Of a DNA stretch of 51,425 nucleotides, positions 2,538 through 47,756 are shown in pieces; the first letter of the stretch is position 1, and each line of letters opens with the position of its first letter. The stretch spans positions 1-51,425 of the IMG/VR virus record IMGVR_UViG_3300037297_000175; one strand, given 5' to 3'. Position numbers and translations under genes: made by a program. The notes beneath the pieces are model-generated. The model had not been told where the DNA came from and made no database searches. It saw only the letters and a program-made list of their open reading frames with translations. The stretch is from a virus (Duplodnaviria; Caudoviricetes).

Positions 2538-2940
2538 ACCGGACAAACCAGGATGCTACTGGTGGGAAGACGACTGCGGACGATATCACGTCGCAGAGTT
2601 TGACGAGGAAATGAAGACCCTTGATTCTTGCGATACTGGTTTTGTTAGTCCAGAAAAGTTTGAAGACTCGGTCTGTTTTATTCGATGGGTAGGCCCGGCG
2701 CACCCGCCGAAGTTGGAACCAACAACCGTACACGAAATGGTGAGCCAATGGCTCGTAAGAAATGGGGCCGATGGGCTCTGGAACGAAGAAGGGCCTTGCG
2801 GTTGTGATGGAACTGCACCGTGCGGCGACGGTCCATATACGGAGTGTAAAGCGGCGGTAGCTGTAGATGAGGATGGTAATGGTGTTGACTTTATATACTA
2901 TCCTGTAACTATACTACCTTATTGGGACTCCAATGGCTGA
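2524..2940 (+). CDS. Hypothetical protein, RPDKPG-domain paralog 2 with Cys-rich C-terminal domain
   Basis: RPDKPGCYWW...WVGPAHPPK, then GADGLWNEEGPCGC. Confidence 0.6.
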   Translation: MMENRPDKPGCYWWEDDCGRYHVAEFDEEMKTLDSCDTGFVSPEKFEDSVCFIRWVGPAHPPKLEPTTVHEMVSQWLVRNGADGLWNEEGPCGCDGTAPCGDGPYTECKAAVAVDEDGNGVDFIYYPVTILPYWDSNG

Positions 2941-3883
2941 CAAATCGAATATAGAGTGGTGTGATGCCACGTGGAACCCGGTGGTTGGTTGCTCGAAGGT
3001 GTCGGATGGGTGCGCGAATTGCTACGCAGAGCAGATGGTGAACAGGTTTACTCATTTAACGGGAGTTCACAGATATTCAGACCAGACGGGCGAAAGATAT
3101 TGTGATGGCCTTGGATGGGACGGAAGCGCCCACTTCATGCCGCACAAACTTGAGCAACCGTTTCATTGGCGGAAACCTCGCAAGATCTTTGTCTGCAGCA
3201 TGGGGGACCTGTTCCACGAGAGCCTCACCAACGAGCAGATCGCGGCCGTGTTCGGCGTGATGGCCGCTACGCCGCAGCATCAGTACGTGGTTCTGACGAA
3301 GCGGCTACAGCGGGCGATGAAGTGGTTCAACTGGGTAGATAGTATTCGGCATCCACGATACGGGGAAATAGAACCGTCTGTCGAGTGTGCTTTTCAACTT
3401 CTTAGGCAAGCGGAGCCTGATGGGGATGGACCTATTCACTGCAAGTACGGGCCGAATCCAGATGCTAAATGGCCCCTTGAAAATGTCATCATGTGCGCCA
3501 GCGTGGAAAATCAGCCGACAGTAGATGAGCGGGCACCACTCCTCTTTCAGATTCCTGCGAAATGGCACGGGGTGAGCGTTGAGCCGATGCTTGAGTCGAT
3601 CGATTTATACATGGATATGTATGAGAGCGAGACAGGATATTGGCACGCTCATGACTGTCCAAATTATTGTGATTATGCGTGTGACGGCTTTACCTCAGAA
3701 GGCGGAATAGATCTCGTCATCTGCGGTGCCGAGACCGGGCCTGGTAAACGGCCGTTCAAAGACGAGTGGGCACTGGACTTGAGAGACCAGTGTCGAGAGG
3801 CAGACACTCCCTTCTTCTTTAAAAAGGACGGAAACGGAAATGGGACGCTCTGCGGTGTCGAATATCATGAGTGGGTGAAGTAA
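2933..3883 (+). CDS. Phage Gp37/Gp68 (DUF5131) family protein
   Basis: IEWCDATWNPVVGCSKVSDGCANCYA, IFVCSMGDLFHE, LTKR, SVEPML, GAETG, PFFFK. Confidence 0.9.
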   Translation: MADKSNIEWCDATWNPVVGCSKVSDGCANCYAEQMVNRFTHLTGVHRYSDQTGERYCDGLGWDGSAHFMPHKLEQPFHWRKPRKIFVCSMGDLFHESLTNEQIAAVFGVMAATPQHQYVVLTKRLQRAMKWFNWVDSIRHPRYGEIEPSVECAFQLLRQAEPDGDGPIHCKYGPNPDAKWPLENVIMCASVENQPTVDERAPLLFQIPAKWHGVSVEPMLESIDLYMDMYESETGYWHAHDCPNYCDYACDGFTSEGGIDLVICGAETGPGKRPFKDEWALDLRDQCREADTPFFFKKDGNGNGTLCGVEYHEWVK

Positions 3884-24160: not shown

Positions 24161-25269
24161 TCCACCACCCATCCTTTGTGTTTGGCCAAAAAGGCTTGTC
24201 GGTCCTTCTCGTCCTGGCTGGCTGTCAATGCAGCGGCATCGCCAGCGGTATTGATCTCGGGCGGGCTGTCGTCCTGTCGAGCCTGGATCATGTTGCGCTT
24301 CATGGCGGCTGACATGTGCTGCGCCTTCACCATTTCGGTGATGCCCTCTCCGTCCTTGATCGCCTTGTGAGCCGCCTCGACATCGCCGCTTCCTTCCGCG
24401 AGGATAAGGTGAGCACAGGCGCGCTCGTGCTCCTCTTTTGAGCCCGCCTCTTTGCCCGCGTTGAAAACAGCGTCATACGTGGCCCGGTGCTCTTCCTTCA
24501 GTGTTTTCGGGTCCATCTTGTCTCCTATCTTTGCCGCCTTGGATTCGGCGGGCTGGTTGTTCATGATTCCGTCAATCATCTTCTTCTGGAGGGCGGTCCT
24601 GGCGGTCATTACGGCCCCTTGGCCGTAGTCTCGCTTGACTTTGTCGACAGTGGTCTTGCGGCCAGCTGCAATCATCTCTGCATACACCTCATAAAAGTCG
24701 TCGAGCTCCTCCTCGACAACCTTCTTCCCCTCTTCGGTGGTCACATCCGGCCGTTTGTTCCGACTGTCACTATTGGTGATGTCGATGATTCTGTCGGACA
24801 CGTACATCGCTGTTGCGATGCCGACACTTCCAACTGCCGAGACTTCGCTTTCAGCGACGATTTCACCTGTTTGAGACGCCAGCATGTAGGCTGCGGAGGC
24901 CAAGGTGTCGCCGGCAATCGTCCTTGTCGGGACGCTCGCCGAAGCAATCGCCTTCATCGCGTCATACAGTCCGTCGACGTACCCACCAGGGCTGTCGATT
25001 TCAAAATCAATTTGTTTGGCGCCCTTGTACTGGGCCTCGGCGACGTCGGAAATGATCTCCGAGTAGACCGCATAGTCCTCATCCCAGTAATCAAGCCAAG
25101 AGTTGCGCTTGGGATATAGCGGCCCCTTTATCTTGATGGTCGCGACACCATTCTTGACCTGCACCGGATCGCGGTCTTTCGATTTTGCCTCGGGCAAGGG
25201 CTGTCCGACAACACTGGCGAACAGGTATGCAAGTCTCTCGACTTCGTCTTGGAGCATCAGTAGCTTCAT
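24157..25269 (-). CDS. Capsid maturation protease (S49) with C-terminal scaffold region
   Basis: IDSPGG, ASAAYMLAS, VGSVG; possible internal start at MDPKTLK. Confidence 0.9.
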   Translation of the reverse strand: MKLLMLQDEVERLAYLFASVVGQPLPEAKSKDRDPVQVKNGVATIKIKGPLYPKRNSWLDYWDEDYAVYSEIISDVAEAQYKGAKQIDFEIDSPGGYVDGLYDAMKAIASASVPTRTIAGDTLASAAYMLASQTGEIVAESEVSAVGSVGIATAMYVSDRIIDITNSDSRNKRPDVTTEEGKKVVEEELDDFYEVYAEMIAAGRKTTVDKVKRDYGQGAVMTARTALQKKMIDGIMNNQPAESKAAKIGDKMDPKTLKEEHRATYDAVFNAGKEAGSKEEHERACAHLILAEGSGDVEAAHKAIKDGEGITEMVKAQHMSAAMKRNMIQARQDDSPPEINTAGDAAALTASQDEKDRQAFLAKHKGWVVE

Positions 25270-26924
25270 GCCGCGGCCTCCTCCTCGACCATGTCCGTTG
25301 GATCGAAGACTCCCATGCCGAGCGCTTTCATCGCATCGGTGACGTTTTTCTCGCCAAACTCGCGCTGTGCCTCGAGGATGGGACGCATCGCCTTTACCTT
25401 CATGCGGTTTTCCTTCTCCAGTTTGCGGATCGTCTTGTCGAACTTGGAACCAGTGAGCGCCCTCGAGGCGTGGCTGTTTGTCTCCCATCCCTCGGAGACC
25501 ATTGCCTTGTGAGCATTGACCTCTTTGAGAATGTCGACTGATGGCTTGATAGATCCAATCCAATCGATTGACAGCCAAGCCTGTTTGACGTCGTATTTCA
25601 TCGGGTCGGACAGCGCCTCGAGGAACCCTGGCGCCTCGATTTTTCCAAGCAGTAGCTCGGATATAAACCACTCCTCGACGAGATTCTGGCAGTGCTGAGA
25701 AGCAAACCGTGCCCGCTTCTCGTCGAGCACCATAATGAATTCGCGTAGAGCAGCTTGGGATGCAGAGTAGTTGCTGCTGAAGCTAAGCAATAAGATCTCA
25801 GGAGGAATTTCCATTGCCCATGAGAGGCCAGCTACAATGGCCGACTCGAACGACGCGAAATTCACATCCGTTCCATGGACAGAATACGGGACTGGTTCCT
25901 CGCCCGGTTGCAGTGAGCCAAACCATACCCCTGGCAGGATCCTGTTGACCTCCACGGGCCTCGTTTCGCCCGTCGTGTCATCTGTGACGCTGTCCTTGCG
26001 CACGGCGCCGTTGCCGATGTGAGGAATCATCTTGGCTTCTTGGGCGCGTTTGATGAACCCAATGATCATCGCATTGATCGATGATTTGAGCTGGGCGCTG
26101 TCCCTATTTTTTTGAATTTCATTTAGCGGCTGGATCGCCATGCCAAGCCCCGGCATTCCGCGCACATCATCCTCGCGCTTGTTCGGACCGTAGACAAGCC
26201 AAGCGGTGTGGCGACCCGACTTCGGCCCGTGCGCAGGCACGTAGACATAGCTGTTGTTGAAAATGTGATCGGTTCCCTGATAGACCCAGAACCCGAGGTG
26301 CTTGCCGTTCTTGTCTAGCTTCACACCGTCGATGACATCCTTGTCTAAGGCGTGCTCGGGTGGGGTCTGCACACGGTTGCCAGAGACAATCTGAATCTGC
26401 GGGAGCCCCGTTGGTTTGTGCTGTCGATTGATAACGAGGCAATCACCGTCAATAAACGCCTCTTGGTAGATCTGGGCTTGTTGCTCACCGTCGATTCTGT
26501 ATCCTTTGCAATCGATAATTTCTTTCGACTTGCAATAGAGCCTGTATCGATTCTCCATTTTGTCTGCCCAGTCGACAAGGGAGTCTTCTGGCGCGCCGAT
26601 AACAGATTCTTCTGGCGTAAAATCCGGCTCCAATCCTTTGTGGATCACATTAGTTACGAGGCGATTTACAATTCCGATAGCATAGGTGTTCGTCCGGAAT
26701 AGGGCTCCACTTCGGGCTCGAAGTGTCCAGTAGTCGAGTGACGCGATCTCATCGATTTGGCCGGAAACACCTCCCCAGAAATTCGCCCCATCGTACGTGC
26801 CTGTCGGTGGAGAAATGAATTGAGATTGGGCTTGAATCGGAACCGGTTCGGGTTCTTCAGCTGCTGGCGAATCGGGCCAGATCCAGGGGAGCTCCTCTTC
26901 CTCGATGCGACGGCCCCAGCTCAT
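25266..26924 (-). CDS. Portal protein, lambda family
   Basis: LRARSGALFRTN, IDGVKLDKNGK..GFWV, VRGMP, NYSASQAAL. Confidence 0.92.
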   Translation of the reverse strand: MSWGRRIEEEELPWIWPDSPAAEEPEPVPIQAQSQFISPPTGTYDGANFWGGVSGQIDEIASLDYWTLRARSGALFRTNTYAIGIVNRLVTNVIHKGLEPDFTPEESVIGAPEDSLVDWADKMENRYRLYCKSKEIIDCKGYRIDGEQQAQIYQEAFIDGDCLVINRQHKPTGLPQIQIVSGNRVQTPPEHALDKDVIDGVKLDKNGKHLGFWVYQGTDHIFNNSYVYVPAHGPKSGRHTAWLVYGPNKREDDVRGMPGLGMAIQPLNEIQKNRDSAQLKSSINAMIIGFIKRAQEAKMIPHIGNGAVRKDSVTDDTTGETRPVEVNRILPGVWFGSLQPGEEPVPYSVHGTDVNFASFESAIVAGLSWAMEIPPEILLLSFSSNYSASQAALREFIMVLDEKRARFASQHCQNLVEEWFISELLLGKIEAPGFLEALSDPMKYDVKQAWLSIDWIGSIKPSVDILKEVNAHKAMVSEGWETNSHASRALTGSKFDKTIRKLEKENRMKVKAMRPILEAQREFGEKNVTDAMKALGMGVFDPTDMVEEEAAA

Positions 26925-27184
26925 GCGGACCTCACCAGGGTTGTACCGCTGCCGTTGAGACGAGCATCGAGCCAATCCAAGCGGAGATAGAGCTTGTCCA
27001 GCTCGGCGCTTAGCCGCGATATATCCTTCTTGGTTACCGTCTGTCGAGTCTGGCCGGTGTCAATCGTATAGCTCTGGAATTTTCCAGTAGACAGCGCAAG
27101 AATAGCGTCCTCGATGGCCTCGATGGCCGTTTTGGTTTTATCGATCCGAGATTGGAGCCATGTTGCGGTTATTGCTGATGCCAT
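26921..27184 (-). CDS. Head completion protein (gpW-like)
   Basis: AILALSTGKFQSYTIDTGQTRQTVT; directly upstream of the portal gene. Confidence 0.8.
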   Translation of the reverse strand: MASAITATWLQSRIDKTKTAIEAIEDAILALSTGKFQSYTIDTGQTRQTVTKKDISRLSAELDKLYLRLDWLDARLNGSGTTLVRSA

Positions 27185-27324
27185 GTCTCATAGCCCAAAA
27201 TTGAGACAAAAATGTCTCTCTGAGACAAGTATGTCTCATTAGTGTCTCACTGGTCAAGCGGGAATGCATAAAAATGTATCACTTGCATAATTATATAATA
27301 AATACAGCTATTTAGATTGTCTCA
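27184..27324. promoter_or_regulatory. TGAGACA/TGTCTCA operator-like array upstream of the head operon, with a possible minus-strand TTGACC-N18-CATACT promoter
   Basis: Copies at 27184, 27202, 27213 (one mismatch), 27221, 27232, 27243 and 27318. Confidence 0.6.
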
Positions 27325-27356
27325 AAAAAAGATTTTGCCTGATTCACTTTTTTTGC

Positions 27357-27385
27357 TGGACACATCCGGATGTGTCCGATATAGT
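27357..27385 (+). promoter_or_regulatory. Sigma70-type promoter overlapped by a perfect 20-bp palindrome
   Basis: TGGACA-N17-TATAGT; GGACACATCCGGATGTGTCC at 27358-27377; AT-rich region upstream. Confidence 0.75.
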
Positions 27386-27432
27386 AGGTACAGATGGTCG
27401 CAATGAAGCGACCATGAGCAAAGGAGAGAAAG

Positions 27433-27600
27433 ATGAAAAACTTGATAGGGTATGAGGCAATCGAAGCAAAAAAGAACAATGATAGCGTAGTCCTCAACAA
27501 GCATGCAGACCCCATAGAAGACGCGCGTTATGACATCTCAGTAGCAGATGCTGAGGAAATCGCCAGCGAAGACCCCAGTCTCATCTACGTTGCAGACTGA
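27433..27600 (+). CDS. Small acidic protein (55 aa), cassette gene 1
   Basis: Read manually: MKNLIGYEAIEAKKNNDSVVLNKHADPIEDARYDISVADAEEIASEDPSLIYVAD; AAAGGAG RBS. Confidence 0.75.
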   Translation: MKNLIGYEAIEAKKNNDSVVLNKHADPIEDARYDISVADAEEIASEDPSLIYVAD

Positions 27601-27602
27601 AC

Positions 27603-27676
27603 CGACCCCCATCCCGCCCGCCAACCATGGCGGACGGGAGTGGAGGCCGATTCGGCCAGAAAAGGAGCAAAAAATG
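27603..27676 (+). repeat. Intergenic hairpin-RBS leader, copy 1
   Basis: CGACCCCCA..hairpin..CGGGAGTGGAGGCCGATTCGGC..AAAGGAG..ATG. Confidence 0.85.
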
Positions 27677-28042
27677 CATTATTGTGTCAATAGATACGGG
27701 TGTCCCGTTCACCATCACGGGAGAGATGACCGACGATGCTCGTGTCGACCTTATTGGGTCGACGAACCAGGCTGTCGAGAGTTGCTCGATGGCGTTGAGT
27801 CCTCTAAAGCATGGAGGGAAGATCATGATCCTTGCGAATGTGCCATACACGGTGGTGATTGTATAGGAATATCCTCATCAATCGAGGCGCATCATCGCGC
27901 CGAGAGAGACTGGTGGCGAGATGCCGTAGATAAAGCCATCCGTAATGGGTGGCTCGGCGACGAAAATTGTCTATATTGGCATGTATCGTGGGAAACAGAA
28001 AACCGATACTGCAAAGAAGAAATTAAGCGTAGAGGGTTGTAA
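27674..28042 (+). CDS. Cys/His/Trp-rich hypothetical protein, cassette gene 2
   Basis: AAAAGGAG RBS before ATG 27674. Confidence 0.65.
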   Translation: MHYCVNRYGCPVHHHGRDDRRCSCRPYWVDEPGCRELLDGVESSKAWREDHDPCECAIHGGDCIGISSSIEAHHRAERDWWRDAVDKAIRNGWLGDENCLYWHVSWETENRYCKEEIKRRGL

Positions 28043-28043
28043 T

Positions 28044-28116
28044 CGACCCCCACCCTGTCTCAGATACCTCTGGGGCGGGAGTGGAGGCCGATTCGGCAAA
28101 AAAGGAGTAGAAAATG
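28044..28116 (+). repeat. Intergenic hairpin-RBS leader, copy 2
   Basis: Identical 9-nt and 22-nt blocks with copy 1; stem sequence differs but still pairs. Confidence 0.85.
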
Positions 28117-28296
28117 GATTTTTTCTATAAGACAGACGGAGAAAGCGGGATAATTCAGGCATCCTCGATTGAGGATGCTCGTGACAAAATGATTATCGAG
28201 GCCGGCCTTACGCCGGCAGCAATCAAGAATGGAGCATGGGGCTGGGTGGAGGATTGCGATGGCGTCCGAATCTACGTCGCCGAAGAAAACATATAG
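28114..28296 (+). CDS. Small acidic protein (60 aa), cassette gene 3
   Basis: AAAGGAG RBS; MDFFYKTDGESG... Confidence 0.7.
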   Translation: MDFFYKTDGESGIIQASSIEDARDKMIIEAGLTPAAIKNGAWGWVEDCDGVRIYVAEENI

Positions 28297-28330
28297 TGGC
28301 CGATTATCAGCCAAGCAAAGGAGTGTAAAG

Positions 28331-28819
28331 ATGGGAGAATTCTTAGATCAAGTGATGGCCGGAGGGCCGTCGCTGATGGATTTGAATGAAAAACAACAGC
28401 GTGTCGTAAGTTGCTTGAAAGAAGATCCGTCAGGCTGGGCTTGGCAATTGTCCAGAGAGAAAATATTAAATCCATTACGAGAGGCGGTGAAAGAAGAACT
28501 TCTTTCAGATTCCTCTTGTAAACTGGATTGTGCATTTCTAACCTACGATATGTTGATTGAGTCGTGCGCCAGCGAAGACGACTCGGAGTCCTGGGCCCGA
28601 AAATTAATTGCATGGATGAGTCCAGCCCTTCCTCAATTACATTTCGGGCCAAGGGGATGGCATGCGGCTTTCCGACATGCTGTGGTATCTGAAGCTAAGT
28701 GGTTGCGAGAGCATGAAAAAAACCAAAAAGATGTTAGGATTAACAGTCCAAGCCTTCCTCCTTGGGAAAACAAGGCATGCCTTGTACTGGCGGAGTTGGT
28801 GGAGGCGGAGACAATATGA
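28331..28819 (+). CDS. Hypothetical protein, cassette gene 4
   Basis: Shortened leader (GGCCGATT..AAAGGAG) before ATG 28331. Confidence 0.65.
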   Translation: MGEFLDQVMAGGPSLMDLNEKQQRVVSCLKEDPSGWAWQLSREKILNPLREAVKEELLSDSSCKLDCAFLTYDMLIESCASEDDSESWARKLIAWMSPALPQLHFGPRGWHAAFRHAVVSEAKWLREHEKNQKDVRINSPSLPPWENKACLVLAELVEAETI

Positions 28820-28889
28820 CAGACTACGTCCGAATGGAGAATCATCACAGGAATCACAGGTTGCCGTGGTCGCGGCCAAGGGGTGAGAG

Positions 28890-29168
28890 ATGAGCACCGA
28901 CGCGGCCGTCACGGCCGCTCGCCTACTACTCGAAGCGAACGTCCCGAGCGGCATCACCCAAGAGCGGATCGACCGGCTCGCCGAGGTGATAAAGGGAATC
29001 ACCGAAGATGAGCTTTCACGGCTCAGAATCGAGACATGTGCCCACGGGGGAGGGGACCCGGAGCGATACGGGAAACGGAGGAAGCGCGCCGGGCGGGCTG
29101 TCAAGATAGGGACCGCTGGCGTACATCCTGGTGAGAAAGGCGTCCAGATCTGGGCGGTATGGGCTTAG
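28890..29168 (+). CDS. Hypothetical protein, last cassette gene, convergent with TerL
   Basis: ORF track; basic C-terminal half. Confidence 0.55.
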   Translation: MSTDAAVTAARLLLEANVPSGITQERIDRLAEVIKGITEDELSRLRIETCAHGGGDPERYGKRRKRAGRAVKIGTAGVHPGEKGVQIWAVWA

Positions 29169-31150
29169 GCCGCCTCACGCCAGAACACCCCATTCTTGCA
29201 GTATTCCCAGAACTGGTACCAATCCACGCCATCCTCGAGCTCGTATACTTTTACACACACAAGATAGGCGAGTATCTCCACCGAGGCGTGCCCGTACACG
29301 AGGAGGTCCCAGAGCTCATTATCAGCGCCACTCGGCCGGTGCCATACATACCCTTTCCGGCCGTTCTGGAGATCAACCTCTTTTTTGTATTCACGGGTGA
29401 GCTCCTTGATCTCATCATCGGTAGCATCTACCGGCAAATTGAGGACATATGGGCGTTGGGTGCCGTGCTCTGGTCGCCACCTACGGCGCAGCGCTGGTCC
29501 GCATCGGTCTTTGTATTCGTCGACGGTAATCAAATAGTACAGCGCACCAGATTTCGTTTTTGATTCCTTGAACGGCTGGATGGTACTGGACTTCGGCGAT
29601 TTGTCAGTCCCCATAATGGGATAAACCATGTGATCCCATTGAGAGCAAAAATCAACCACCACGTCGGTATTGTACCGAGCATCAATTAGACTCAATGCCA
29701 ACCGGTATTCTCGCCCTCGGTCATCTACCCATGTCTCTGCGTCAATGACATCTCTGAGTTGATCCCATCCCTCCGCGTCGATGCTTTCAAACCCGGTCTC
29801 TGTCTCGTCGATAATTTGGTAGTAGTCGATCTGCCACGGATTAAAACCAAACCCGTCGCCCTGTGTCCACCCCCAAATCGCAACATTGAGATGCGATTTG
29901 TGAACATCCACGGTCATGGTCAGAAACAGTACGCCAGATACGCAGTATTCTTCGATTTTCTTATTTGGTATCTGTCCCTTGGTGTAGAACTGCCGTCGGT
30001 GACCGGATACGACGCGGAATGTGATCTTGTCCCCTTCCTCCTCGAATGTCTGCGCGAGAAAGTTGTTGTAAAGCCTGCGAAGAGCCTTCCTACTCTTCGT
30101 GCGTCCCGTCTTGATGTCCATGGCCTCGAGGTACATCGATACGCCTTTTGACCACCTTGTTCGGCGAGACATGAGGCCGGTGATATGGTAGCTCCTGATT
30201 CCTGGCTCAACCGGAACGGCAGTAGGCTCCCAAAAGGCATTATCCTTCGCGATAAACCTGATTTTGTCGTGCTCTGTATGTGGATTATCGCAGTATTTAC
30301 AGTGGTACCGAACGCTGTTTATGTCGAGCTGGTCACCATTCATATCCCATTTCAGACCATACTTCTTTCCTGTGTCCTTGTTCGTTCCGGAGAACCGCAG
30401 CTCCTGTGCCTCTCCGCACCTCAGACACCGAACCTTGTATTTCCTCCGGTCACCTCTGTTGTATTGCTCTTCAATCCGTGATGCCCCCCTCGTTGTAGGC
30501 GTGCACCCAATGAAAATCTTTCTGACATCATCAAATGCAGTTGTCCTATCACGAAAAAGCTGGATTGGGTCGCCGTCCGGGTTGTCCGGATAGGCGTCTA
30601 CCTCGTCGAGCAGTAGCCCTAAAGCAGGGATCTCTCTCATCATGTGGGCTTTCTGCCCGCCTCTCGGGATCATGTGGCCGCCGCCGACCCACTGCATGTG
30701 ATCCTTGGTGACACCGCGTTTTCTACTGTTCCCGATGTCATGACTTTGAAAGATGCCTCCGAGCCCGGATAACTGAAACATCGGTATGAACGATGAATCA
30801 ATAATCTCCCTGGCAGCGTCGATTGTGACGTTCGAGTAAATGACGGGAGCGGTCCGGATATGAACAGCGAAATAAAAAACGATTGCCCTCAAGATTGTCG
30901 AGTAAGCGGATTGCACACACTTCAGGACAGATACTTCACGGACATCCTCTCGAACATCAAAGCAGTTCAGGGGCTCAATCCAGTACGGAGTACGGTCAAA
31001 TCGGATGTAGCCCGGGTCTTTCGTCTCTGACGACGGCAGGAAGCGCATGCTCTCGTTGCACTCAACCGGTGTCATCTGCTGAATATGGTCCGTGAGGTCC
31101 AACGCCGTCTCGGACGCCCACTGCCTTCCAATTGTGTCGATATTACACAT
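29165..31150 (-). CDS. Terminase large subunit, lambda gpA family
   Basis: RTPYW, LLDEVDAY (Walker B), GCTPT, CxxC pairs, MTVDVH, NELWDLLVY. Confidence 0.93.
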   Translation of the reverse strand: MCNIDTIGRQWASETALDLTDHIQQMTPVECNESMRFLPSSETKDPGYIRFDRTPYWIEPLNCFDVREDVREVSVLKCVQSAYSTILRAIVFYFAVHIRTAPVIYSNVTIDAAREIIDSSFIPMFQLSGLGGIFQSHDIGNSRKRGVTKDHMQWVGGGHMIPRGGQKAHMMREIPALGLLLDEVDAYPDNPDGDPIQLFRDRTTAFDDVRKIFIGCTPTTRGASRIEEQYNRGDRRKYKVRCLRCGEAQELRFSGTNKDTGKKYGLKWDMNGDQLDINSVRYHCKYCDNPHTEHDKIRFIAKDNAFWEPTAVPVEPGIRSYHITGLMSRRTRWSKGVSMYLEAMDIKTGRTKSRKALRRLYNNFLAQTFEEEGDKITFRVVSGHRRQFYTKGQIPNKKIEEYCVSGVLFLTMTVDVHKSHLNVAIWGWTQGDGFGFNPWQIDYYQIIDETETGFESIDAEGWDQLRDVIDAETWVDDRGREYRLALSLIDARYNTDVVVDFCSQWDHMVYPIMGTDKSPKSSTIQPFKESKTKSGALYYLITVDEYKDRCGPALRRRWRPEHGTQRPYVLNLPVDATDDEIKELTREYKKEVDLQNGRKGYVWHRPSGADNELWDLLVYGHASVEILAYLVCVKVYELEDGVDWYQFWEYCKNGVFWREAA

Positions 31151-31772
31151 CTTCGAACAGCGCCCTTTTGATGTCACGCTTCAGCGGTTTAACAAGGGAG
31201 GAGATCTCTTCCCGGATGGCCACCTCTACTTCTTCGCGGGCGACACCCTTCTCTCCTCTCTCCTCCGCCTCGAGACCGGACCGAACAAGGGAGAACGCCG
31301 TTGAGGTGATCGTCTTGGCTCCATCTGTGAGTAGCCGTACAAGGAATGTTTCTAGTGGGTTCCATACGCCACGGATCATAATCTCCCTTGCAACTAGGCG
31401 CCCCTCAATCTGGGCATTCTTGAGTTCAAGTTGCTGGGCCTGTGCTGCCAGTTTTCGTCGCTCAAGGACGAGCTTGTCCATAGCACCTGAGATGTCGTCT
31501 TCGCTTGGGAGGGGAAAAGGTGGACGGTCAATAGATGGGCGCCCCCGCGGCGCTGACTTCTTTTTCGGACCTGGCTTCTTATTAGCTTTGCTTGGCTTCT
31601 TCTTTTTTGACCGCTCCTTCTTAGCGGCAATGTAGGCGCCACACTCCGGCGCTTCTGCGTCAATCGTGCCGTCTGGCAATACAGGGATCCGGTTCTCCCG
31701 TATCGCCTTCGAGACGGCCGCTTTCGAGACGCCAGCCAGATCCGCGAAGTCCTTTTTCGAAACACGGCCCAT
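31143..31772 (-). CDS. Terminase small subunit
   Basis: N-terminal HTH SKKDFADLAGVSKAAVSKAI; ELKNAQIEGRLV; upstream of TerL. Confidence 0.8.
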   Translation of the reverse strand: MGRVSKKDFADLAGVSKAAVSKAIRENRIPVLPDGTIDAEAPECGAYIAAKKERSKKKKPSKANKKPGPKKKSAPRGRPSIDRPPFPLPSEDDISGAMDKLVLERRKLAAQAQQLELKNAQIEGRLVAREIMIRGVWNPLETFLVRLLTDGAKTITSTAFSLVRSGLEAEERGEKGVAREEVEVAIREEISSLVKPLKRDIKRALFEDV

Positions 31773-35001: not shown

Positions 35002-35694
35002 TCACCGGGCGACACTCCCGCAAGCTGCTCTGGACGACACCCCGTCCAGGTCCTCGACGACAGTGTCGTCTTCGGCCGGAGACGACGCAAACTCTCGCCA
35101 AGCCGCCGACACAACCCCAGTGCCAGGAAACAAATCGTCAAACATGTCGTTCGGCGCCGCGGCAAGCGCCTGGAACAGGAATGCACAGAATGCGATCGGT
35201 TTTCGCCCCATGAGCGTCCCACCAAACCTGGCCGGTTGAGCTGAGATCCAGTCGCGGATCCCGGAGTGAACGACGCGAGCCTGTTTCACGACCAGTGGCT
35301 CCCATGTCGAGTGTAGACCTCGAGTCCTCGGCGACGCTCCAATTGGCTTCACCCACGCGCACACCCTGACTTCAGGCGGGCAGAGGGGGAGTATGTCGCG
35401 CAAGGCCTTCGACGACGTTGACAGCGCCCACCCATCGTATGTCGCTAGATCCCGGACGAGACGCACATGGTCTACCTCGCCCCGGTAGGTGTCCTCGTAC
35501 TGGTAGTACTTCTTTGCCAGACCTGGGTATGGCGGGTCGGCGTAGGCCAGCCGCTTCGGTTCCCGGGCTGTCGCCTCGAGGTGTGAGAGACGCCGAAACC
35601 GATATGCAGCCTGCCTGCACCGTTTGGAACAGTAAGTTTGGTGTTTCTTGACGGGAACTTTATCGCACCATTTGCAGAGCTGTTGAGTCATCAA
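35002..35694 (-). CDS. Putative amino-DNA methyltransferase with N-terminal zinc ribbon
   Basis: CxxC..YCSKRC; YADPPY; DLFPGTG. Confidence 0.7.
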   Translation of the reverse strand: MMTQQLCKWCDKVPVKKHQTYCSKRCRQAAYRFRRLSHLEATAREPKRLAYADPPYPGLAKKYYQYEDTYRGEVDHVRLVRDLATYDGWALSTSSKALRDILPLCPPEVRVCAWVKPIGASPRTRGLHSTWEPLVVKQARVVHSGIRDWISAQPARFGGTLMGRKPIAFCAFLFQALAAAPNDMFDDLFPGTGVVSAAWREFASSPAEDDTVVEDLDGVSSRAACGSVAR

Positions 35695-36661: not shown

Positions 36662-37306
36662 TCACACCGCAAGCACTCCTTGCGCAAGACGCTGAATAGC
36701 TGACCGACAATACGTCTCTTCTATTTCAACACCAACAGCTCGATACCCAAGCGCCTTTGCCGCAACCAGTGTTGTCCCAGATCCAGCAAACGGATCCAGG
36801 ATTACACCGCGATGGCAACAGGATATTAAGTCCATCATTAGAGACACGGGCTTTTCCATTGGATGCCATCTTGATTTTCTTCGTCCTACGCAGCCCGCTA
36901 CAGCCAAATGTCGCAACACGGATCCTCTTCGCCTTCCAAAGAAACCTCTTCCGATTACATATATCTCCTCATGGTTTGGCTTCCATGGCAACGAAAGATC
37001 CCCCATGCCAACATGTTCACCTTTCTCCCATATAAGTAAGTGTCGAGTATTTATCGGGCGAGCAATTCTCCATGTTCCAAACACAAGAGCAGGGCGTTCA
37101 CCCCATGCGTCAAGCAGTGTGTCGCGGGCAACGGTATCCAGATCGCCATTTATTGAGCAGTCACCTAACCGTCCTTTCTTTCCACTGCTAAACCCTATCC
37201 CATATGGCGGGTCGGTAACCAGTACATCAGCGTATATCGAGTCAAACACATCCCGGAAATCGCAATTAAAAATTGTAATCCCTGATTCCTCGTAATAGGG
37301 TTTCAC
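36662..37306 (-). CDS. N4/N6 DNA methyltransferase (beta class)
   Basis: TDPPYG, HPMEKP, LDPFAGSGTT; GTGA overlap start. Confidence 0.9.
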   Translation of the reverse strand: MKPYYEESGITIFNCDFRDVFDSIYADVLVTDPPYGIGFSSGKKGRLGDCSINGDLDTVARDTLLDAWGERPALVFGTWRIARPINTRHLLIWEKGEHVGMGDLSLPWKPNHEEIYVIGRGFFGRRRGSVLRHLAVAGCVGRRKSRWHPMEKPVSLMMDLISCCHRGVILDPFAGSGTTLVAAKALGYRAVGVEIEETYCRSAIQRLAQGVLAV

Positions 37307-37488
37307 TTTTCTATCTCCTCTCCGTGCGCATTCCAGCACGCTTTAATATTTCCGACATACCAATGACAGCATGATGCATCCGTATTGAACGGCCTGATCT
37401 CGCATCCTGTAAAGTCGTTGAGAGTGCAACGGCAATGAATCCAGTTGTACCAAGCGCACTGTCCACAGAATATTGAGATACGACTCAT
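37303..37488 (-). CDS. Small Cys-rich protein
   Basis: FCGQCAWYNWIHCRC; coupled overlaps at both ends. Confidence 0.55.
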   Translation of the reverse strand: MSRISIFCGQCAWYNWIHCRCTLNDFTGCEIRPFNTDASCCHWYVGNIKACWNAHGEEIEK

Positions 37489-42777: not shown

Positions 42778-43037
42778 GTTTTTCTCTTAGAAATATCCAA
42801 CAATTACAGGACCATACTGAAAATATTTTCAGGGATGGTCCATGGCCTCAGAACGTCAATCTCGCTCCAAAACTACACATTTTCTGTCGATTTTAATCGT
42901 TTACTGAAAATCTGGCAATTCCTGGAAATTTGCATGATTTTCGAAATGATACATGCTTATCATCTGCGAAACAAATCGAAGGCTTGGCGGGGAATTCAGG
43001 TGGCACTGGTGCGCCAAATCAACAGGAAAGGTGTGAG

Positions 43038-44147
43038 ATGAGCAAGCATATAAGACAGTCAAAACCCGCCAAGCGTGGTAAACGCTGGCAAATCCGATGG
43101 ATCGATGAAAACGGAAAAAGAAGAAGTCAAACGTGGGACAACTACGAGGATGCCGAGCACGCCTTGGCGACCCATAAGCTTCAAGTGATGGAGGTGCGTC
43201 GAGGCCTCCGGGTGCGTCCGCCAAAGGGCCGCAGCTTTGAGGAGCTTTGCCAGAGATGGCTGGAAGTCCGAACGACTCGGAAGCGCACCCGGAAAGACGA
43301 CACATCAATCATCGGGGTGCATCTGCGGCCGACTTTCGGTCGCTTAGATATCGCCCAGATCACTTCGGAGCACATTGACCTTTTTTCGGCAGCGCTGTCG
43401 GCAAAGCGCGCGCCACAGACTGTTCGGAACGTCCTGATATTGCTTGGCGCCATGCTTAGACAAGCCGTAGAATGGGGGTGGCTCCAGTTTGTACCCAGGA
43501 TACAACTGCCGAGGGTTCGACTGTTTGAGAGCGCCTACAGGTGGCTTCGTACAGAAGATGAGCGAGATCAATTTTTGCGCGCTGCGAAGCTGTATCACCT
43601 GCCGGTGGTCTATCACATGTACGCAACCGCAGTGCATACTGGAATGCGCGCCGGCGAGCTTGCGGGCTTGCGGTGGCAGGACGTAGACCTCAACCGTCGC
43701 ATAATCACCGTTCAGCGATCATACGATGGCCCAACGAAAGCCGGCGATATACGACATATCCCGATTGGCGACGGCCTGCTTCCTATTCTCAGGGAGTGGC
43801 GGCTGGCCTGTGGTAACCGGTTCGTGTTCCCCAATGCAGCCGGCCAGATGTGGGATCCGCGCGGTCGTATTTTCAAGACAATGTTCCATAAGGTGCTGCA
43901 ACTGGGCGGGTTCCCACCAAAGTACATCACTTTTCATTCCTTGCGGCACACATTCGCGAGTCATTTCGTGATGAACGGCGGCGACCTGGAGGGTCTCCAG
44001 CAAATCCTCGGCCACAAGGATTCGAAAATGACCCAGCGATACGCCCATTGGCGCCCCGATGCCTTTGACAAGTATCGAGGAATCATGGGGCCAGTAAAGT
44101 GCGGCGATGGCGAGGTGGTCGAGATGCGCAAGAAGGAGGAGGCATGA
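43038..44147 (+). CDS. int: Tyrosine integrase
   Basis: TGMRAGEL, TKAG, HSLRH, LGH, RY catalytic residues; N-terminal arm-binding WQIRW. Confidence 0.93.
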   Translation: MSKHIRQSKPAKRGKRWQIRWIDENGKRRSQTWDNYEDAEHALATHKLQVMEVRRGLRVRPPKGRSFEELCQRWLEVRTTRKRTRKDDTSIIGVHLRPTFGRLDIAQITSEHIDLFSAALSAKRAPQTVRNVLILLGAMLRQAVEWGWLQFVPRIQLPRVRLFESAYRWLRTEDERDQFLRAAKLYHLPVVYHMYATAVHTGMRAGELAGLRWQDVDLNRRIITVQRSYDGPTKAGDIRHIPIGDGLLPILREWRLACGNRFVFPNAAGQMWDPRGRIFKTMFHKVLQLGGFPPKYITFHSLRHTFASHFVMNGGDLEGLQQILGHKDSKMTQRYAHWRPDAFDKYRGIMGPVKCGDGEVVEMRKKEEA

Positions 44148-45602: not shown

Positions 45603-45826
45603 AGACCATGAAGCGGCTCTACAAGAAGCACACGCGCGAGCTGGTTCGTATCGGATGGAAAGATGAAACAGGGCCAGATCGAACACCAATTCTAAAATGG
45701 AGACCACGTAAAGGCCCGCATCCATCGCTGAAGACCTTTATTCGTGGAATCAGTCAATCTGAACTATCCAAAAACAAAATCAGCCTTAGTCCAAAGGTAA
45801 AGAAAATACGTGAGGTCCACAAATGA
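45599..45826 (+). CDS. Small basic hypothetical protein
   Basis: ATGA overlaps at both ends. Confidence 0.5.
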   Translation: MKTMKRLYKKHTRELVRIGWKDETGPDRTPILKWRPRKGPHPSLKTFIRGISQSELSKNKISLSPKVKKIREVHK

Positions 45827-46626
45827 ACCATCAGATATACGAAGAAATGGACGCCCTCAACTGGAGCACGCTAAAGCAAATGTCTACCTCGCCAGCGTTC
45901 ACAAAGCACCAGGCCGACCATCCCGAAGAAGCGAAAGACACGGACTCATTTCGTCTCGGGCGGGCAGTACACTGTGCGGTGTTGGAGCCGGAGAGGTTTC
46001 TGGATGAGTACATCGTGCAGCCCGACTTCGGAAACATGCGCACAAAGGCAGCCCGGGAGGCCAGAGATGGATGGCTGGCTGGCTTGCCCAAGGGTGCCGA
46101 GGTTATCAGTGGCGAAGAGTTCGAGGCGGCGACGAGGGCGGCCACGGCGGTTCATGCGCATCAGTACGCCATGGAATTACTGCGCGGCGCGAAGACAGAA
46201 CGCATTGTGCAGTGGACGCATCCAGGAACTGGAATTAAATGCAAGGGACGTCTGGACGCGATCACCGATAGGGTTGTGGACCTGAAGACAACTCGGCGTC
46301 CGACAGTGCGTGAGATCCTACGGGATGCCGCGAACTATGACTACCATGGCCAGCTCGCATGGTACCACGACGCAGCAATTCGAGCCGGGCTGATCGACGG
46401 ACACGTGCTCCCGGCAATGATTGCGATCCACATACAAAAGGGAAGCTCCTTCATTGACATCGCCGTTTTCAGTATGGGGTACGCCCCCGAGACACTGGAT
46501 GCCGGCCGCGCACTATACGAAGATCTGATCTCGCAATACGCGGGATGTCAATCAACAGAATGGTGGCCAGGTATGGCTCCGGAGGTGGTTCCATGGGAGC
46601 TCCCTTCATGGAAGATGGAGGGTTAG
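45823..46626 (+). CDS. RecE/exonuclease VIII-like PD-(D/E)xK nuclease (DUF3799)
   Basis: LNWSTLK, LGRAVHCAVLEP, CKGRLD..VDLKTT, YHGQLAWY. Confidence 0.88.
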   Translation: MNHQIYEEMDALNWSTLKQMSTSPAFTKHQADHPEEAKDTDSFRLGRAVHCAVLEPERFLDEYIVQPDFGNMRTKAAREARDGWLAGLPKGAEVISGEEFEAATRAATAVHAHQYAMELLRGAKTERIVQWTHPGTGIKCKGRLDAITDRVVDLKTTRRPTVREILRDAANYDYHGQLAWYHDAAIRAGLIDGHVLPAMIAIHIQKGSSFIDIAVFSMGYAPETLDAGRALYEDLISQYAGCQSTEWWPGMAPEVVPWELPSWKMEG

Positions 46627-46830
46627 ATGGAACGAAAAAGGAATATCATGACGGCACCAATGGTTGCGCGCATCTGTGAGTGTGATCTGAAAACAATCCA
46701 CAATTGGGTGAACAGCGGGAAGATGAATGCCTTCCGGACACCGGGCAGGCATCTCCGGTTCACCAAGGCCGATGTCGTTTCGTTCTTGCGGAAATACGGC
46801 TTCGTCGTTCCCGGGGAGTTGCTGAAATGA
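46627..46830 (+). CDS. HTH_17/MerR-like DNA-binding protein
   Basis: TAPMVARIC..KTIHNW..G..AFRTPGRHLRF. Confidence 0.8.
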   Translation: MERKRNIMTAPMVARICECDLKTIHNWVNSGKMNAFRTPGRHLRFTKADVVSFLRKYGFVVPGELLK

Positions 46831-47756
46831 CTGACTCGCACGCGATAACCACGACTGCGCCTGCGCAGATCGAGCAACAAACGAAAATGCATCCGCTGGC
46901 TATTGCCGCAATGCAAAATGATATCGACCCAGAGAGGCTGGAAAAACTCATGGCGCTTCAGGAGCGACATGAAGCACGGGAGGCGAAAAAAGCCTACACG
47001 GAATCAATGGCGCTGCTCAAGTCTGAGTTGCCAGCCGTCCTTGAACGGGATCAGAAGGTCGACTACGTCAATCGAAAAGGCATCAGGGTAACCTACACTC
47101 ACACCAGCGCAGCGTTGGCGGTGAGCGTTATTGTTCCAATCCTCTCCAAGTATGGTTTCTCGCATACCTGGATCCCCGCAACTGAAGGTGGTCTTGTCAG
47201 GGTTACCTGTCGAATAACACACCGCGATGGTCACAGCGAAGAAGCGCACCTGGAATCACCGCCAGACACCTCTGGGAACAAAGGGCCAGCGCAAGCCATA
47301 GCTTCGACGCAGACGTTGCTCAGCCGGTATACGTTATTGGGGCTGCTCGGCATCGCCACCGCAGACATGAAAGAGCCACGCCAATCAAGCGACGACAAAG
47401 TTGACGCCGCGAAAAACCTCCAGGCCGTCGCCACACTCAAACAATGCGACGTGACACTGGAGCAGGCGTGTAATCATGTCGGCAAGGACGTGCGGCAATG
47501 GACATTGGCGGATTTGGAAAAACTCAGAGAGCTCGTGAGGGCCAACCGAAAGCAACCAGCCGCCGAACCTGCCAAAACCGCAACCGACGAGTCGCGAGAG
47601 ATCGAACAGCTCCGCATAGAAGTAATCGACAAGGCCCGTGTAAAGTGGGGCGATGACGCCCTGACCAGTCTCGACAAACTCCTTCAGTCGAACGGGACAT
47701 CGTTTTCTGAGGCTGGATTGGATGCTCTCAACTGGGCGATGGAGGAAATGGAATGA
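46827..47756 (+). CDS. ERF-family single-strand annealing protein
   Basis: LEKLMALQER, PILSKYGFS, VTCRITHRDGHSEE, QAIASTQT..RYTL. Confidence 0.85.
   Translation: MTDSHAITTTAPAQIEQQTKMHPLAIAAMQNDIDPERLEKLMALQERHEAREAKKAYTESMALLKSELPAVLERDQKVDYVNRKGIRVTYTHTSAALAVSVIVPILSKYGFSHTWIPATEGGLVRVTCRITHRDGHSEEAHLESPPDTSGNKGPAQAIASTQTLLSRYTLLGLLGIATADMKEPRQSSDDKVDAAKNLQAVATLKQCDVTLEQACNHVGKDVRQWTLADLEKLRELVRANRKQPAAEPAKTATDESREIEQLRIEVIDKARVKWGDDALTSLDKLLQSNGTSFSEAGLDALNWAMEEME

Follow-up and report, generated by a model that had tools for sequence, protein, structure and literature searches.

In the early mRNA of phage T7, intercistronic hairpins serve as RNase III sites, and their cleavage gives the upstream message a hairpin at its 3' end. 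Intercistronic repetitive extragenic palindromic (REP) sequences and other stem-loops act as stabilisers in bacterial operons, for example malE-malF. T4-like phages carry promoter-early stem-loop (PeSL) cassettes, conserved intergenic modules with a stem-loop and a Shine-Dalgarno (SD) sequence that, in the accessible text of the two reports, mediate gene-by-gene shuffling (Arbiol et al. 2010, PMC2839356; Comeau et al. 2014, PMC4122927). Start-associated sequences (SAS and ESAS) of cluster K mycobacteriophages combine an inverted repeat with an SD (Pope et al. 2011, PMC3203893), and the available part of that paper presents their function as thought to be translational. Here we describe a repeated element of ~75 nt that separates genes of an accessory operon in a phage genome, IMG/VR virus record IMGVR_UViG_3300037297_000175 (Duplodnaviria; Caudoviricetes). 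The window, that is, the whole stretch of DNA analysed, is this entire record (51,425 b, completeness rating 99%). It serves as the reference, and other phage or metagenome records are denoted by L-numbers. The element is very probably a real structured linker that marks the boundaries of gene exchange.

Structure of the element

The element lies within an operon of five genes, g1-g5. Its parts follow in the order upstream stop codon, C-rich box CGACCCCCA, hairpins P1 and P2, A-rich single-stranded linker, SD, and start codon of the next gene; the spacers are 71-79 nt long. P1 is a 15-bp hairpin with a bulged A, a freely varying tip and a loop of 4-6 nt. P2 begins one base after P1 and in the window copies is a 5-bp hairpin, GGCCG-AUU-CGGCC. 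Every copy starts at the upstream stop codon or at most 2 nt from it, and ends at the next start. All copies and remnants are co-oriented with the genes, and their register to stop codon and SD is fixed.

Two full copies were found in the window, both on the + strand. E1 (27601-27673) matches a covariance model (CM) of the element with 92.6 bits and consists of the 5' box at 27602-27611, P1 at 27609-27643, P2 at 27645-27657, the A-rich linker and the SD GGAG at 27664-27667. E2 (28043-28113, 83.3 bits) has the 5' box at 28043-28052, P1 at 28050-28084, P2 at 28086-28098 and the SD GGAG at 28104-28107. A first-pass annotation of the window had noticed two spacers sharing CGACCCCCA and the 22-mer CGGGAGTGGAGGCCGATTCGGC, followed by an SD and ATG, and had reported that their stems differ and yet pair, the second through G-U pairs. 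Both observations hold. The 22-mer has exactly two matches in the window (27635-27656 and 28076-28097) and none in 100 shuffles even with three mismatches, and P1 of E2, whose tip differs from that of E1, contains three U-G pairs and the bulged A. The limits of the first spacer, given there as 27603-27676, are corrected to 27601-27673, with g2 starting at 27674.

A repeat search of the window returned the same regions: a 31-nt repeat with 90% identity (27632-27662 and 28073-28103) and a repeat of the 5' box (27600-27614 and 28041-28055). The predicted fold of E1 has an energy of -32.8 kcal/mol (z -4.0), equalled by none of 200 shuffles; for E2 it is -30.3 kcal/mol (z -2.8), equalled by two of 200. 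Across copies the box CGACCCCCA, the stem base, the bulged A, AGTGG and the flanks are near-invariant. The variable part of P1 is its distal half, for example CGCCA/TGGCG, TCAGA/TCTGG, CTCGA/TCGAG and GTCAC/GTGAT. In the copy at 4324-4407 of L013, the 3' arm of P1 contains an 11-nt tandem duplication (GTCGGTGGAAT twice).

A coding origin of the spacers is ruled out, as a stop codon stands directly before every copy and the spacer lengths shift the frame relative to the next start. Rfam models run over the whole window gave no matches at the gathering threshold, and lax thresholds gave only chance-level ones (E 1.5-9).

Covariation and strand

Pairs were counted in a MAFFT alignment of 21 copies that was not fitted to any structure; the copy of L013 and those at 5584-5648 of L008 and 1175-1239 of L007 were left out because of poor alignment. 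Standard pairs occupy 89.3% of the cells (91.1% in P1, 83.8% in P2), and pairing falls to 34-50% when the partner is slid by 1-3 columns. Six pairs have changed on both sides, in 18 cells, where shuffles give 5.6 +/- 2.1. None of 500 shuffles reached the covariation score of 0.286 (shuffles: 0.187 +/- 0.013). Alignments of 13 and 16 copies give a similar covariation picture, and P1 is recovered unaided by RNAalifold. In L014, P2 has been exchanged in place for other hairpins (GCCAA/TTGGC, TGCC/GGCA). The earlier suggestion that selection acts on RNA structure is thus borne out.

P1 contains 54 G-U versus 13 A-C cells of 315, and it pairs in 91.1% of cells when read as the + strand versus 78.1% as the minus strand. 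Without two near-fixed wobble columns the counts are 27 G-U versus 13 A-C. Compensatory changes, and changes to G-U, preserve the pairing of P1 on the + (mRNA) strand. This strand bias, together with the co-orientation with the genes, the register to stop codon and SD, and the analogous hairpin-linker-SD arrangement of the g1 leader (see below), makes the mRNA the likely folded molecule.

Distribution of the element

We searched with exact and degenerate patterns, with the g1 protein as anchor, and with a CM built from 13 copies. These searches gave 22 full copies in nine records, all from wetland, sediment and rhizosphere metagenomes. There are two copies each in the window, L003, L005 and L007, three each in L004 (the L004/L040 phage), L008 and L014, four in L049 and one in L013. 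Additional truncated copies were found in L007 (1175-1239), L008 (5584-5648) and L049 (10408-10470). CM matches antisense to real copies, for example at 27576-27650 of the window on the minus strand, are the palindrome reversed and were excluded from the counts. In whole-record scans of five related phages, two of them 100% complete, one array of ~2 kb per phage holds every match.

The 21 open reading frames (ORFs) that follow full copies formed 15 BLASTP clusters, corrected to 14 families because one start was 2 nt off. The searches, among them one with a covariance model as proposed in the first-pass annotation, show that the element is no one-off: it occurs in nine records, upstream of 14 unrelated ORF families, in arrays that vary. 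No matches to the strict element pattern were observed in 185,579 prokaryote species, each represented by one genome, and blastn of the locus gave no match among the INPHARED phages. The family is so far small, with nine records.

A scan of IMG/VR with a pattern of P2 and SD gave 23 stretches. Five of them lie in the already known records, and L049 is a new array. L034 and L043 have an identical 24-nt P2-SD segment in common, with a weak model score (19 bits). Eight stretches (L030-L032, L035-L037, L039, L042) were dropped as one coding sequence of GC-rich phages, and L033, L038 and L044-L048 were not counted as copies. L006, one of three metagenome pattern matches, has no SD or gene context and was dropped as a chance match.

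Distant homologues of g1 were observed in GC-rich phages (63-65% GC), L020 and L021. Between these genes and the next SD, at 782-870 of L020 and just past 4120 of L021, lie a C-rich box, CCCCCACCC or TCGACCCCA, and a hairpin of the form GCCCGC..GCGGGC. This arrangement may be an older relative of the element; its model score is weak (16.8 bits for L020).

Gene exchange at the elements

Writing E for a full element, e' for a remnant and P for a promoter-like spacer, the array of the window is g1, E, g2, E, g3, e', g4, g5. That of L003 is g1, E, gY, E, gN::g3, e', g4, g5, and that of L005 is g1, E, gY, E, gK-g3, e', g4, g5. The L004/L040 array reads gZ, E, gM, P, g1, E, g2, E, gK-g3, e', g4::P2-SD, gM', and continues beyond. 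L007 and L008 have g1, E, gL, E, (gY or gX), ..., gI, E, gE, and L049 has five copies, one of them before an extended g1. Thus g2 of the window is swapped for an unrelated gene of 79-81 aa in L003 and L005, and an additional gene of 83 aa lies between the element and g3 in L004 and L005. L049 and L007 contain deletion derivatives. In L003 (2334-2726, minus strand) a g3 homologue is fused in frame behind an 81-aa gene that is free-standing in L049, giving a 131-aa protein; recombination in the array thus also makes chimeric genes.

Where two arrays are homologous, the homology begins and ends within elements, at points that vary. Between the window and L004, identity is 114/170 in g1, 365/369 nt in g2 and 31/42 in the stem of E2. 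The comparison of the window with L005 gives 129/168 for g1, 521/523 for the region of g4 and 349/349 for g5. The ends of BLAST blocks fall at 27607, 27667, 27676, 28101, 28112 and 28122. In DNA contigs from other wetland runs, position 27633 is joined to 28112 and position 27673 to 28109, with foreign sequence between them, and loose contig ends begin with further stem variants. Junctions were observed in the 5' box (L009), in the P1 arm (type II copies of L007 and L008), between P1 and P2 (L049), in CGA (the L007 remnant) and, for E2 of the window against L004 and L005, in the SD region. L040 has a junction inside g4, at an 8-nt chance match GTGGAGGC, where the 3' end of g4 is fused to the 3' box of the element, P2, the SD and a new gene. 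The g4 gene of the window holds a similar 11-mer, a repeat at 28799-28809.

All three copies in L004 have one P1 in common, though they flank the same g2 as in the window, where the stems differ. From the sequences, this looks like homogenisation between copies.

In the window, L003 and L005 the array is flanked by terL and gpW. Its position differs in the complete L004 phage, where its neighbours are baseplate/tail genes on one side and an exonuclease-Erf module on the other. This phage also encodes the pair of recombination genes found in the window (see below). The scattering of junctions over short identical tracts, together with this Erf/exonuclease pair, fits homology-driven exchange. 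Rad52-like phage recombinases play a role in relaxed recombination, according to the accessible text of one study (PMC3945230). The role of the repeats as homology anchors for gene exchange, proposed in the first-pass annotation, agrees with homology blocks that end inside the elements.

Leaders, promoter and genes of the operon

The leader of g1 contains an 8-bp hairpin, ATGGTCGC/GCGACCAT (27394-27415, + strand), followed by GAGCAAAGGAG and the ATG at 27433. The hairpin sits a few bases past the predicted transcript start. Its energy is -13.7 kcal/mol (z -5.5), and none of 200 shuffles equals it. A hairpin stands at the equivalent place before the g1 SD in eight of nine arrays, with three unrelated stem sequences, and the stem of L005 is saved by a U-G pair.

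The leader of g4 (28297-28330, + strand) is a remnant element with the 3' box, a P2-like hairpin and the SD only. By comparison with the first copy of L004 it is recognisable as the 3' half of the element (AGTGG..CCGATT..GCCAAGCAAAGGAG). Seven leaders retain only the 3' box, P2 and the SD. The homologous g4-leader regions of L007 and L008, located by blastn, are CM matches. Short leader hairpins had been proposed for both g1 and g4. The g1 hairpin stands, but that of g4 is at chance level in the window (-5.1 kcal/mol, z -0.15, 84 of 200 shuffles), though its leader derives from the element; in L003 the g4 hairpin has -8.6 kcal/mol (z -2.1).

A candidate sigma-70-type promoter, TGGACA-17-TATAGT (27357-27385, + strand, 10/12 matches, a consensus match only), is the top promoter-like site in 27000-29400. 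Its spacer contains a perfect 10+10 palindrome, GGACACATCC/GGATGTGTCC (27358-27377), a possible operator of the operon promoter. The palindrome has one change in L005 and is lacking in the arrays of L007, L009 and L013; these three use another promoter type, TTGACA-17-TAAAAT. The heptamer TGTCTCA/TGAGACA occurs in at least six copies, in both orientations, at 27184-27330, in the interval that separates the gpW-like gene start from the operon promoter. This stretch contains two weak minus-strand promoter-like sites (27323-27295 and 27257-27228) and is conserved in L003 and L005. The block is probably a regulator-binding region serving the divergent promoters.

All five genes are on the + strand. 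g1 (27433-27600) encodes a 55-aa acidic ORFan with 13 D/E versus 5 K/R. It lies directly upstream of an element in all nine element-bearing records (as an extended g1 in three), and L004 and L049 have element copies upstream of g1 as well. L009 contains a close g1 homologue without the element. Its homologues comprise 18 small 'hypothetical' proteins, and the search anchored on g1 gave 17 viral loci and four loci of metagenome-assembled genomes (MAGs). This is a small, widespread family of acidic ORFans; the MAGs that encode distant homologues carry the labels Azospirillaceae, Polyangiaceae and Bryobacteraceae. In L008 (5995-6309, minus strand), L013 (4001-4321) and L049 (11123-11416, minus strand) g1 is lengthened to ~100 aa by a C-terminal part (..KPTEFLVYMDAPRHW..).

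The next genes encode ORFans of 122 aa, rich in Cys and His (g2, 27674-28042), 60 aa (g3, 28114-28296), 162 aa (g4, 28331-28819) and 92 aa (g5, 28890-29168, the last gene of the operon). None of the five proteins was assigned to a Pfam or PHROG family, and nine of ten other array proteins have no Pfam family either. A cassette gene at 4266-5012 of L014 encodes a 249-aa protein of VRGDLSx-type repeats. A gene for a pentapeptide-like repeat protein (..LKGANLKGANL..) lies a few kb (~3 kb) downstream of the array of L008, whose locus is in reverse orientation.

Phage genome and location of the operon

The window is a temperate, tailed, lambda-like phage. It contains a lambda-type large terminase gene terL with GpA_ATPase and GpA_nuclease domains (29165-31177, minus strand), a lambda-family portal gene (25266-26975, minus strand) and a gene for a gpW-like head-tail adaptor (26921-27184, minus strand, phrog_118). 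A tyrosine integrase, the sole tyrosine recombinase of the window, is encoded at 42930-44147. An ERF-family annealing protein (PF04404) is encoded at 46704-47756, beside the gene for a PD-(D/E)XK/RecE-like exonuclease (45823-46626). In the lambda gene order gpW comes directly after terL. In the window, the five-gene operon is inserted between terL and the gpW-like gene, on the opposite strand and with its own promoter-like site.

The genes g5 and terL are convergent, with a 4-nt overlap (29165-29168) and no terminator between them. Thus late terS-terL transcripts would read antisense through the entire accessory operon. They might stop at 28313-28297, where the g4-leader hairpin, read in reverse, forms a weak terminator-like site of the minus strand. 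Elsewhere in the window, two genes encode DNA methyltransferase-like proteins (35002-35694, weak D12-class; 36662-37339, N6_N4_Mtase), and the gene at 2933-3883 encodes a DUF5131 protein.

Proposed role and alternative explanations

We lean towards a combined reading in which the element is an RNA punctuation linker and a homology anchor at the same time. As RNA, the module would punctuate the polycistronic transcript of the promoter-driven accessory operon. P1 could be a hairpin that protects the upstream cistron at its 3' end or directs processing there, and P2 with the A-rich linker and the SD a portable 5' leader for the downstream cistron, by the same logic as the g1 leader. With P1 guarding the upstream cistron and the remainder leading the downstream one, any inserted ORF would become an autonomous expression unit. 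As DNA, the invariant flanks of 16-32 nt may provide short homologies for swap, deletion or insertion of ORFs. Exchange at these flanks would be carried out by the phage Erf-type annealing protein or by host recombination, and the outcome would be an integron-like array without site-specific recombination. That the RNA role is specifically one of processing or stabilisation is proposed tentatively, its chances being slightly below even.

Several observations weigh against this combined reading. The copies are related by descent and recombination, and because of the shared ancestry the shuffle control overstates significance. Changes on both sides affect no more than four pairs of P1, close to the loop, and two of P2. 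P2 has no strand asymmetry (6 G-U versus 7 A-C), and RNAalifold favours pairing of the 5' box with GGAGGCC, an extension of P1, over P2. The sequence conservation of the stem base and flanks exceeds the need of a pure structure element. G-T pairs are tolerated in single-stranded DNA hairpins too, so that the strand bias of P1 leaves room for a DNA-level role. In a folding test the predicted probability that the SD-AUG region is unpaired is 0.72 for the native sequence; shuffling the core gives 0.67 (p 0.011) and deleting it gives 0.72 (p 0.85). An 'insulator' role, with the hairpins as keepers of an open SD, is thus not supported, as they give no gain over their deletion. Evidence from RNA libraries consists of two short Logan contigs from two metatranscriptome runs, which are possibly DNA carry-over and cannot show ends, strand or level. 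One is identical to the window over 28154-28488; in the other, the 3' box of the element is combined with another stem and another gene downstream. The rule for RNase III substrates, in the accessible text of PMC3867540, calls for a mostly regular helix of 22 bp, or about two turns; P1, with 15 bp and a 1-nt bulge, is shorter than this idealised E. coli substrate.

Alternatively, the element could be an attenuator, with a terminator-like P1, a falling gradient of expression along the array and conserved flanks that are hitch-hiking. P1 is indeed a GC-rich 15-bp hairpin right after each stop codon. Moreover, the stem-loops of PeSL are strong terminators in the available text on them (PMC2839356), and attC hairpins are proposed as transcript terminators in the accessible part of an account of integrons (PMC8876359). 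However, no U tract (T-rich tail in the DNA) follows P1, and none of the four terminator-like sites in 27000-29400 falls within E1 or E2 on the + strand. There are no promoter-like sites within 27601-27673 or 28043-28113, the sole strong + strand site being upstream of g1, and thus efficient termination would silence genes 2-5. This explanation, which also leaves the conservation of P2 and of the A-rich/SD part unexplained, seems unlikely to us. The near-invariance of CGACCCCCA, stem base, bulged A and AGTGG around a varying tip, beyond structural need, would suit an RNA operator. In this case the stem base, the bulged A and the flanks would bind a phage or host RNA-binding protein or endonuclease that co-regulates the cassettes, for example by translational repression or Cas6/Csy4-like cutting. 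The constant position of g1 or extended g1 before an element in 9/9 records agrees with it, as does the similar C-rich box and hairpin after the distant g1 homologues of L020 and L021. On the other hand, no RNA-binding or nuclease domain was recognised among the array proteins by Pfam (none in the five of the window and nine of ten others), and g1 is strongly acidic. Recombination that keeps the flanks alike predicts equal conservation, and we regard an RNA operator as quite improbable.

A role at the DNA level would make the folded single strand or cruciform a recombinase substrate in the fashion of attC, with the RNA structure as a by-product. The layout is integron-like: promoterless ORFs behind one promoter are separated by imperfect palindromes in which some bases are conserved, the centre varies and one base is extrahelical. 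A tyrosine recombinase gene is present in the phage, and the strand bias is also compatible with a single-stranded DNA substrate. However, the attC core GTTRRRY/RYYYAAC is present in 0/16 copies. The integrase is encoded 14 kb from the array and scores 54.2 bits on TIGR02249 (integron integrase) versus a cut-off of 265. The junctions are scattered over the 5' box, the P1 arm, the 3' box and the SD and include the chance match in g4, which is the mark of homology-driven exchange and argues against a fixed-point recombinase. Thus a recombination site of this kind is very improbable. The first-pass annotation had called the array integrase-free; this is right in that there is no integron-type machinery, but the phage has an ordinary tyrosine integrase as well as the Erf/exonuclease module. 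The least probable explanation is a selfish miniature palindrome, similar to REP or miniature inverted-repeat transposable elements (MITE), that spread in the array, or else neutral leftovers of spacer duplication. Such an origin would account for short, imperfect, multi-copy intergenic palindromes, some of them truncated. It does not agree with the co-orientation of 21/21 aligned copies and the remnants with the genes, in a fixed register to stop and SD, nor with a single array per phage and the lack of strict-pattern matches in the prokaryote genomes searched. Moreover, compensatory changes keep the pairing in diverged copies, at loci from 37% to ~50% GC.

The combined reading can be extended to an integrase-free platform with one promoter. 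There, the linker RNA would make each captured ORF a self-sufficient stable message, and the linker DNA would be a site for Erf capture, excision (possibly as mini-circles) and reshuffling between co-infecting phages. The whole array would be mobile, and the cassettes would form a pool of host-takeover or anti-defence genes. This extension is rather unlikely in its entirety.

If the combined reading is true, shuffling at conserved regulatory linkers is not peculiar to T4-like phages and also occurs in temperate lambda-like phages, in a form that is promoter-less, operon-internal and carried by structured RNA. The element would then be a defined RNA motif, absent from Rfam, for spotting variable accessory arrays in metagenomic phages, and a natural portable linker for expressing unrelated ORFs from one operon. 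It would also offer a concrete substrate for studying short homologies and phage annealing proteins in genome mosaicism. The 14 ORFan cassette families are candidates for host-interaction functions.

Comparison with known systems

Like REP sequences, the element places a stable hairpin after a stop codon within an operon, and this hairpin could shield the upstream cistron from 3' exonucleases. However, REPs are found genome-wide in hosts and in both orientations, whereas the element is phage-specific, restricted to the array and coupled to an SD. It shares with the T7 RNase III sites the position of a hairpin between cistrons of a phage polycistronic mRNA, but its helix has 15 bp and one bulge and reaches ~20 bp only with a weak, mismatched extension of four pairs. 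We know of no case of T7 RNase III sites acting as repeated homology anchors for cassette exchange. With integrons, in the accessible text of PMC8876359, the array has in common one upstream promoter, promoterless ORFs, imperfect palindromes with a variable centre and differences by whole cassettes. Unlike attC sites, the element has no GTTRRRY core (0/16) and supplies the next SD, the phage has no integron integrase, and the junctions are not fixed.

The SAS/ESAS of cluster K mycobacteriophages, as described in the available part of PMC3203893, consist of a conserved SD sequence before starts, with an imperfect inverted repeat upstream of about half of them, a variable spacer and one orientation. 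The element resembles ESAS in this layout, as P1, with its loop of variable length, precedes the SD and all copies are co-oriented. The SAS 13-mer GGGATAGGAGCCC has no matches in the window with up to two mismatches. The arms of ESAS are conserved 17-bp consensus half-sites, whereas the stem tip of the element covaries freely. In the same text SAS occur genome-wide and go with particular gene families, and no role as exchange points is reported for them.

The closest parallel is PeSL. According to the accessible text of the PeSL reports, both modules are at most ~100 bp long, extend from the upstream stop codon to the SD and start of a downstream ORFan, and contain a stem-loop with G-T pairs. 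Both occur in plastic regions, and it is at these modules that related phages differ by indels and replacements; the mechanism proposed is the same, homologous recombination between neighbouring copies. PeSL, however, comprises a sigma-70 promoter and a terminator stem-loop, so that each ORF is its own transcription unit. The element has neither promoter nor terminator tail, is operon-internal and therefore is not a member of PeSL. It differs further in its two hairpins and fixed 27-nt core, in being found in temperate phages whose terL and portal genes are of lambda type, and in number, a single array per genome against ~50 copies of PeSL. We found no identical element in the open-access literature. 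Nevertheless, the first-pass annotation overstated the case in speaking of an undescribed system, as PeSL (PMC2839356) and the inverted repeat-SD units of cluster K (PMC3203893) are precedents, so far as their accessible text goes. The concept of the element has precedent in PeSL and ESAS, and the promoter-less, operon-internal form is a variant of it.

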